From the NCBI GenBank assembly GCA_038087875.1, contig CM075990.1, forward strand, positions 4,466,001 through 4,530,000: a stretch of 64,000 bases of DNA, in the 5' to 3' direction. The stretch comes from Malacoraja senta (Eukaryota). The position numbers were made by a program, and so were the translations under genes. The notes beneath the pieces are model-generated. The model worked only from the letters and a program-made list of their open reading frames with translations. It did no database searches and had not been told where the DNA came from. This document shows, in pieces, positions 46,901 to 49,900 of this stretch (position 1 is the first letter of the stretch; each line of letters starts with the position of its first letter).

Positions 46901-49900
46901 GGCCAATACCATACCTACGGTGAAGCATGGTGGTGGCAGCATCATGCTGTGGGGATGTTTTTCAGCAACAGGAACTGGGAGACTAGTCAGGATCGAGGGA
47001 AAGATGAATGGAGCAAAGTACAGAGAGATCCTTGATGAAATCCTGCTCCAGAGCGTTCTGGACTTCAGACTGGGGTGGAGGTTCACCTTCTAACATGACA
47101 ACTACCCTAAGCACACAGCCAAGACAACGTGACAAGTCTGTGAATGTCCTTGAGTGGCCCAGCCAGAGCCCAGACCTGAACCCGATCAAACATCTCTGGA
47201 AGGACCTAAAAATAGCTGTGCATCGACGCTCCCCATCCAGCCTGACAGAGCTTGAGAGGATCTGCAGAGAAGAATGGGAGAAATTACCCAAATACAGGTG
47301 TGCCAAGTTTGTAGCATCATACCCAAGAAGACTTGAGGCTGTCATCACTGCCAAAGATGCCTCAACAAAGTACTGAGTAAAGGGTCTGAATACTTATGTA
47401 AATGTAATATTTCAGTTATTTCAAAAATTCTAAACACCTGTTTTCACTTTTTTATTATGGGGTATTGTGTGTAACATAGAAACATAGAAATTAGGTGCAG
47501 GAGTAGGCCATTCGGCCCTTCGAGCCTGCACCGCCATTCAATATGATCATGGCTGATCATCCAACTCAGTATCCCGTACCTGCCTTCTCGCCATACCCTC
47601 TGATCCCTTTAGCCACAAGGGCCACATCTAACTCCCTCTTAAATATAGCCAATGAACTGGCCTCGACTACCATCTGTGGCAGAGAGTTCCAGAGATTCAC
47701 CACTCTCTGTGTGAAAGAAGTTCTTCTCATCTCGGTTTTAAAGGATTTCCCCCTTATCCTTAAGCTGTGACCCCTTGTCCTGGACTTCCCCAACATCGGG
47801 AGCAATCTTCCTGCATCTAGCCTGTCCAACCCCTTAAGAATTTTGTAAGTTTCTATAAGATCCCCTCTCAATCTCCTAAATACTAGAGAGTATAAACCAA
47901 GTTTATCCAGTCTTTCTTCATAAGACAGTCCTGACATCCCAGGAATCAGTCTGGTGAACCTTCTCTGCACTCCCTCTATGGCAATAATGTCCTTCCTCAG
48001 ATTTGGAGACCAAAACTGTACGCAATACTCCAGGTGTGGTCTCACCAAGACCCTGTACAACTGCAGTAGAACCTCCCTGCTCCTATACTCAAATCCTTTT
48101 GCTATGAAAGCTAACATACCATTCGCTTTCTTCACTGCCTGCTGCACCTGCATGCCTACTTTCAATGACTGGTGTACCATGACACCCAGGTCTCGCTGCA
48201 TCTCCCCTTTTCCTAGTCGGCCACCATTTAGATAATAGTCTGCTTTCCTGTTTTTGCCACCAAAATGGATAACCTCACATTTATCCACATTATACTGCAT
48301 CTGCCAAATATTTGCCCACTCACCCAGCCTATCCAAGTCACCTTGCAGTCTCCTAGCATCCTCCTCACAGCTAACACTGCCCCCCAGCTTAGTGTCATCC
48401 GCAAACTTGGAGATATTGCCTTCAATTCCCTCATCCAGTTCATTAATATATATTGTAAATAGCTGGGGTCCCAGCACTGAGCCTTGCGGTACCCCACTAG
48501 TCACTGCCTGCCATTGTGAAAAGGACCCGTTTACTCCTACTCTTTGCTTCCTGTTTGCCAGCCAGTTCTCAACATTGAATTCTCCCAATTCTGCTAGCCC
48601 TTGCTGTCCCCTCCCCTTCATCAGCCATCTGGTTGTCTCCTCCCCTCCCCCAGCCCTCGGGCTCCTCCTCCGCCTTTGTCCTTTTTTCCTTTCTTCTCCC
48701 CACCCCCTATCAGTCTGAAGAAGGGTTTCGGCCCGAAACGTTACCTATTTTCTTCGCTCCATAGATGCTGCTGCACCCGATGAGTTTCTCCAGCATTTTT
48801 GTGTACCTTCGATTTTCCAGCATCTGCAGTTCCTTCTTTAACACTCTATCCACATCAATACTGAACCCCCAATGCCATGTGCTTTAAGTTTGTATACTAA
48901 TCTCTTATGTGGGACCTTGTCGAAAGCCTTCTGGAAGTCCAGATACACCACATTCACTGGTTCTCCCCTATCCACGCTACTAGTTACATCCTCGAAAAAT
49001 TCTATAAGATTCGTCAGACATGATTTACCTTTCGTAAATCCATGCTGACTTTGTCCAATGATTTCACCACTTTCCAAATGTGCTGCTATCCCATCTTTAA
49101 TAACTGACTCTAGCAGTTTCCCCACTACCGATGTTAGACTAACTGGTCTGTAATTCCCCGTTTTCTCTCTCCCTCCCTTCTTGAAAAGTGGGGTTACGTT
49201 TGCTGCCCGCCAATCCTCAGGAACTACTCCAGAATCTAAAGAGTTTTGAAAGATTATTACTAATGCATCCACTATTTCTGGAGCTACTTCCTTAAGTGCT
49301 CTGGGATGCAGCCTATCTGGCCCTGGGGATTTATCGGCCTTTAATCCATTCAATTTACCCAACACCACTTCCTGACTAACCTGGATTTCACTCAATTCCT
49401 CCAACTCCTTTGACCCGCGGTCCCCTGCTATTTCCGGCAGATTATTTATGTCTTCCTTAGTGAAGACGGAACCAAAGTAGTTATTCAATTGGTCCGCCAT
49501 ATCCTTGTTCCCCATGATCAACTCACCTGTTTCTGACTGCAAGGGACCTACATTTGTTTTAACTAATCTCTTTCTTTTCACATATCTATAAAAACTTTTG
49601 CAGTCAGTTTTTATGTTCCCTGCCAGTTTTCTTGCATAATCTATTTTTCCTTTCCTAATCAAGCCCTTTGTCCTCCTCTGCTGGTCTCTGAATTTCTCCC
49701 AGTCCTCCGGTATGCTGCTTTTTCTGGCTAATTTGTACGCATCATCCTTCGCTTTGATACCATCCCTGATTTCCCTTGTTATCCACGGATGCACTACCTT
49801 CCCTGATTTATTCTTTTGCCAAACTGGGATGAACAATATTTGTACTTCATCCATGCAGTCTTTAAATGTCTTCCATTGCATATACCGTCAACCCTTTTAG

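Follow-up and report, generated by a model that had tools for sequence, protein, structure and literature searches.

Minimal type I hammerhead ribozymes (min-HHRs) in the pseudo-LTRs of metazoan Penelope-like elements (PLEs) have been known since 2014, those of fishes included, where Xena, Poseidon and Neptune elements are said to carry them (Cervera and De la Pena, 2014; PMC4209133). The descriptor given in that work calls for a stem I of at least 3 bp while accepting 2-bp cases as variants, and the monomers are described there as cleaving themselves poorly when alone. The pseudo-LTR is reported to contain the promoter (PMC2377424). In the account given for the green anole element, PLE reverse transcriptase (RT) starts inside its own RNA at two sites 30–40 nt apart, which produces a tail, unprocessed RNA is the main RT substrate and cleavage needs protein (Frangieh et al., 2024; PMC11167929). 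Published PLE features further include tails, inverted copies and palindromes at junctions (10.1101/2021.04.23.441226; PMC11167929; PMC3846280). A literature search, with Repbase and Dfam outside its scope, found no published description of the repeat family considered here.

The window is the whole 64-kb stretch of DNA that was analysed. Within it, positions 48571–48843 are a 5′-truncated PLE end lying inside the RT gene of a CR1 LINE, and the insert comprises the final codons of an ORF, a UTR rich in pyrimidines, a minimal type I hammerhead motif and a tail of 35 nt. The features at this site are as follows.

47566–51508 (−): host CR1-type LINE with a GDSL esterase ORF1 and an endonuclease-RT ORF2, its RT domain split by the insertion (Pfam)
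48568–48570 (+): CTC, repeated at 48844–48846; a 3-nt target duplication or junction microhomology
48571–48843 (+): 5′-truncated PLE end (pseudo-LTR fragment), 273 nt, from the empty-site joint and contig loose ends at 48571 and 48843
48571–48597 (+): final 8 codons of the PLE ORF with its stop, from translation, the upstream loose-end consensus and the Craig et al. Fig. S2 alignment
48598–48709 (+): C/T-rich 3′ UTR with a pyrimidine tract at its end, 22/24 pyrimidines preceding the AG at 48712–48713
48710–48718 (+): TCAG-N-CTGA palindrome, the main 5′ boundary of short copies and the centre of head-to-head pairs
48713–48744 (+): minimal type I hammerhead motif with a 2-bp stem I and palindromic CG, from sequence, laid out as in Cervera Fig. 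S3
48763–48825 (+): predicted 8-bp stem, 48763–48770 with 48818–48825, reaching into the tail (RNAalifold, 7 tail-bearing copies)
48809–48843 (+): optional 35-nt tail between two 3′ boundaries (putative RT start sites), from its presence on one arm of the 34788–35011 pair

The boundaries of the insertion rest on an empty site. CR1 contigs from all four sequencing runs aligned skip 276 nt between 48567 and 48844 with three letters ambiguous, and the insert is therefore 48571–48843 plus CTC. Here and below, evidence from sequencing runs means assembled contigs, whose depth ratios do not equal copy numbers. Segments 5–99 and 91–197 of the Pfam RVT_1 profile flank the insertion, one per side, and Exo_endo_phos and Lipase_GDSL_2 are matched too. 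The converse nesting is seen at 12240–12602 (+), where an old copy of the repeat is split by a CR1 3′-end insertion; both families were therefore active over overlapping times. A second CR1-type LINE at 60310–63914 (−), about 66–70% identical to the interrupted copy, has an endonuclease-RT frame open over 1002 aa and an ORF1 for a GDSL esterase (Pfam). Elsewhere the window contains a Tc1/mariner transposase N-terminus at 46344–47093 (+; Pfam HTH_SB, HTH_Tnp_Tc3_2) and a reading frame with a C1q domain at 57180–57644 (−; Pfam), probably a host exon. Pfam also places ALKBH8_N, a domain known from LINE ORF2 ends, in a reading frame at 23091–23798 (−), which is probably a further retroelement fragment.

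The membership of the insert among PLEs, which the initial annotation had drawn from an NIEFS-type ORF end, is borne out by what lies upstream of the truncation. An in-frame peptide that includes N-I-E-F-S opens the insert at 48571–48597, and 104 contigs of run X2 extend upstream of 48571 with a common consensus (agreement 0.65, median loose length 12 letters). Translated by hand in the N-I-E-F-S frame, this 30-letter consensus from one run reads R-F-G-S-L-H-P-G-G-M, and these residues together with the window's first Asn match the endonuclease end of Neptune1_Nv at 7/11 residues, as compared by hand with Fig. S2 of Craig et al. (2021; PMC8557442). In frame, the continuation thus corresponds to the terminal part of a GIY-YIG endonuclease, which supports the PLE link, and the first ORF codon of the insert is probably the conserved terminal Asn of that domain. 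The P-x-G-L-N motif is missing from the Penelope, Poseidon and Nematis rows of the same figure; Naiad and Chlamys have it too, but with an N-terminal endonuclease and, as described, mostly without hammerheads (10.1101/2021.04.23.441226). Neptune is therefore the likely clade, and we regard the assignment as probable from the end motif and its position, both of which fit Neptune over about 19 codons. The order expected of an endonuclease-bearing (EN+) PLE, an ORF with GIY-YIG upstream of the hammerhead, can be read here for the last motif only. A six-frame motif search of the 64-kb window and Pfam on 32/41 long ORFs gave no PLE RT or GIY-YIG pieces, and neither window nor collection scans recovered an RT domain or a parent of full length. 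In the short unit, an ORF beginning with ATG was considered and rejected, its frame not being common to the subfamilies.

The core boxes of the hammerhead lie where the initial annotation had put them, with CUGAAGA at 48715–48721, an extra A at 48722 and GAAA at 48735–48738, followed by CG and by UU at the site. Stem II is formed by GGGU (48723–48726) and GCCC (48731–48734), 4 bp including one U–G around a UUCG loop, and cleavage is predicted at 48742/48743. This layout is that of the published min-HHR consensus (PMC4209133 supplement), with stem II inside the 3–7 bp criterion, closed by G10.1–C11.1, and an extra base after A9. Stem I counts 2 bp, as had been cautioned, and so falls under the published 3-bp descriptor minimum; the earlier statement that PLEs carry minimal type I hammerheads agrees with the published account (PMC4209133). 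In most contig depth for the 48571 subfamily the base 3′ of the predicted cut is G, not A, and G still pairs with U. In four of four fragments modelled as monomers the hammerhead fold lies 8.9–10.5 kcal/mol higher than the optimum, and none of them is more stable than its shuffles (z from −0.6 to −1.6), so that a lone copy cutting itself appears very unlikely. The 8-bp stem predicted by RNAalifold has a two-sided change in 1/8 pairs and a weak energy (−2.29). RNA-library contigs X15 and X16 cover the hammerhead core; they are uninformative on expression, strand and ends, and the zero coverage they show over 48590–48685 was given no weight.

The repeat is abundant and decayed. A gapped scan of the window gave 20 core-bearing copies at a score of at least 26 (ten shuffled windows gave 0 or 1 match each, 2 in total), a motif search that tolerated at most 2 mismatches matched 10 times, and not once in 100 shuffles, and a profile search gave 29 pieces, partial ones included. 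The closest relative in the window is:

28734–28864 (−): 10 differences in 130 nt, begins 1 nt before the core, with tail (window scan)

At least three subfamilies can be told apart. It had been stated that more than a dozen copies share one string; the family stands, with its 20 core-bearing copies, but the exact string occurs in 2 (in 5 with two wobble positions), and the family is therefore real but decayed. All core bases, the 4-bp stem II and the CG palindrome are intact in 6/20 window copies, and the 48571–48843 copy is one of two among these that also keep both stem I pairs. The palindromic CG at 15.2/16.2, which would allow a stem III to form in a dimer, is present in 10/20 window copies and is mostly TG or CA in the remainder. 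CpG core sites decay fastest (G12 lost in 6/20, positions 15.2/16.2 changed in 10/40 cells); non-CpG core sites changed in 10/200 cells, against 15/100 in five downstream columns, a difference that is partly a subfamily effect, so the decay may not be fully neutral. The initial annotation had also stressed that stem II is kept while its loop varies. Pairing is indeed kept, in 88% of cells, but the argument built on it does not hold: loop change is mostly CpG decay, as in CTCG to CTCA, and we reject loop variation as proof of selection. Covariation in stem II and a hammerhead covariance-model search had been named as checks. The covariation score (0.192) does not exceed shuffles, 79/500 of which reach it, and of the 33 Rfam matches obtained in the window up to E 5, none is to a hammerhead family.

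These results, together with the 2-bp stem I, the unfavourable fold and the near absence of copies that start at the cut site, are what would be expected if the hammerhead match were a vestige or coincidence, a promoter or protein-binding site that never cleaved even in the parent. We consider this unlikely. All 11 fixed core bases, the extra base, G10.1–C11.1 and the CG palindrome are placed as in PLE hammerheads, and the hammerhead of the anole PLE is reported to cleave upon binding of its protein (PMC11167929). Other collections bear on the same point. An animal-looking metagenome contig (L001, 1761–1791, −) carries a diverged motif whose match begins 1 nt before the core; it keeps the same core with a C(UACG)G hairpin, exchanges the fourth stem II pair from U–A to C–G, which is one clean two-sided change, and has unlike downstream sequence. 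A loose scan found 45 viral loci matching both boxes; stem II measured 4 bp in just one, PLE motifs were absent from all, and these loci were taken as chance. Collection scans for the repeat gave 0 matches in viral contigs, 0 in plasmids and, in successive scans, 0 then 1 in metagenomes; prokaryote genomes gave 0 then 3, all without the stem and looking like chance.

Where the copies begin is an addition to the known PLE picture: there is a fixed start boundary just before the core. Most copies (17/20) start 0–5 nt upstream of C3 of the catalytic core, and 3/20 reach the upstream UTR. Contig loose ends peak at 48713 (267, X2) and 48710 (407, X3), with unrelated flanks (agreement 0.32–0.35). 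The boundary lies about 30 nt 5′ of the predicted cut, and while a few partial pieces begin at about 48739–48759, none begins exactly at 48743. Since copies begin upstream of the predicted cut, the copied RNA template was uncleaved. The boundary may be the 5′ end of the copied RNA. We put at about even the chance that a stop or a cut lies behind it instead, set by the palindrome or by a 3′ splice acceptor, with the element still a PLE end; the variants would be stalling of RT at a pyrimidine tract occupied by the spliceosome, snap-back of the cDNA and resolution by an endonuclease. The boundary does read as a splice acceptor (AG|T), with CAG right before the core and a pyrimidine tract of a strength matched by 0.12% of the 4082 YAG sites in the window, and it reads as a palindrome as well. 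Consistent with such a stop or cut, 10/17 short copies belong to junctions that are inverted or compound, palindromes have been documented where head-to-head copies meet and interpreted as self-priming (PMC3846280), and the intron of D. virilis Penelope is reported to end at helix I, with the start site 46 nt further up (PMC4209133, PMC2377424). The other 7 of the 17, however, are solitary and begin at the same place with no partner. They share no common upstream exon, GT, AGT or CAGT is kept in 4/7, and no GTRAGT donor was read by eye in 48571–48713, all of which argues against a stop or cut of this kind. One of the solitary copies is:

8429–8544 (−): solitary tail-less copy starting at the core, in an 11–12-bp target duplication (site inspection)

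YYANWYY and TCAKTY are initiator consensuses, and the boundary, with A at 48712, is initiator-like in these terms (they fit 1.3% and 0.15% of window positions, respectively). We hold it possible, at somewhat under even odds, that 48710–48714 is a transcription start site; a downstream promoter element at +28 to +32 matches its consensus at 4/5 positions, which is too weak, and was set aside. The boundary could further be a capped start, with the hammerhead at the tip of the RNA, such that cleavage would clip a 31-nt capped leader and act as a decapping switch, an arrangement we think rather doubtful. The position at the tip would be the reason why stem I is capped at 2–3 bp, the short copies would be a genome-wide fossil record of uncut RNA alone being copied, and some 126-nt tandem units might spread independently.

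The 3′ ends of copies fall near 48798–48819 or 48835–48843, and head-to-head pairs occur near 14.5, 16.5, 25.4, 34.9, 40.8 and 42.2 kb. The most informative pair is:

34773–35026 (no strand): two short copies placed head to head and meeting at the palindrome, with the tail on one arm, in a 15-bp target duplication (site inspection)

Its arms (34788–35011) are joined at TCAG-T-CTGA and the 35-nt tail is on one arm only. One-sided tail, head-to-head pairs and target duplications are PLE hallmarks, all of them present here, with a clear target duplication wanting in most other copies (15 sites examined). Palindromic pairs of this kind mimic microRNA hairpins, and the repeat is therefore useful to know for annotation: the Rfam miRNA matches, MIR2118 included, were AT repeats or head-to-head pairs, all below threshold. 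A long TA/TG simple repeat at 41027–41694 is a source of spurious ORFs and miRNA matches. Single rows of contig joints repeat the hammerhead core alone (48741 back to 48711 or 48712), one of them, again a single row, with a G immediately before 48712, a possible cap signature.

Tandem joints from 48838 to 48713, in 13 and 5 contigs, raise the question of whether the 126–130-nt unit moves in its own right, as a non-autonomous element akin to a retrozyme or SINE for which tandem dimers with an active hammerhead are the source. The unit is uniform and has several subfamilies, and retrozymes are on record for one chondrichthyan and have been connected with PLE pLTRs (10.64898/2026.07.22.740005). 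Against this, none of the 20 window copies belongs to a full tandem array with a complete hammerhead in consecutive units, and the closest subfamily retains ORF-bearing members. In the anole element the RNA needed for binding is reported to extend beyond the RT start sites (PMC11167929), and the short copies may therefore lack it. We judge such independent mobility improbable.

We are instead confident that the repeat was left behind by insertions of a PLE with an endonuclease, probably one of the Neptune clade, and its copies would arise by priming from a front and a rear block. The parent RNA would hold the block of hammerhead and start site twice, ahead of the ORF at the front of the RNA and again after the ORF. 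Synthesis primed in the first of these would run for about 95–130 nt to the fixed stop just before the catalytic core and yield the many short copies; synthesis primed in the second would proceed through the hammerhead into UTR and ORF and break off at random, as in the copy at 48571–48843. Head-to-head pairs would arise when both target strands are primed and the products are joined via the TCAG-N-CTGA palindrome, and tandem joints when synthesis, having reached the fixed point, resumes at the start site. In the parent, the hammerhead would probably be a dimer- or protein-assisted RNA-processing motif, and almost all solitary genomic copies are inert.

Compared with the min-HHR PLEs described so far, the element has the same CUGANGA-H, G10.1–C11.1, GAAA, palindromic 15.2/16.2 and NUH, as well as a pyrimidine-rich upstream region, mostly solitary truncated copies and opposite-strand pairs (PMC4209133). 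Its 2-bp stem I is like that in the Drosophila, Culex and Oikopleura rows of Fig. S3 in that work, whereas the fish rows have longer ones; a stem II of just 4 bp sets it apart from that set, in which cartilaginous fish are missing from the 56 rows of the figure. Animal non-LTR retrozymes are likewise described as short non-coding type I hammerhead units akin to PLE pLTRs, but they are defined by tandem arrays with a hammerhead per unit, whereas the copies here are solitary or head-to-head and tandems are rare joints (10.64898/2026.07.22.740005). Green anole Poseidon PAc similarly has two internal RT start sites and a tail downstream of the hammerhead, and the uncleaved template deduced here agrees with what is reported for it; PAc belongs to another clade, however, and its ORF is described as starting inside the hammerhead (Frangieh et al., 2024; PMC11167929). 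The Neptune-clade PLEs, as presented by Craig et al. (PMC8557442), have in common with this element a C-terminal endonuclease with a P-x-G-L/M-N end just before the stop, a hammerhead behind the ORF, a tail and inverted truncated copies.
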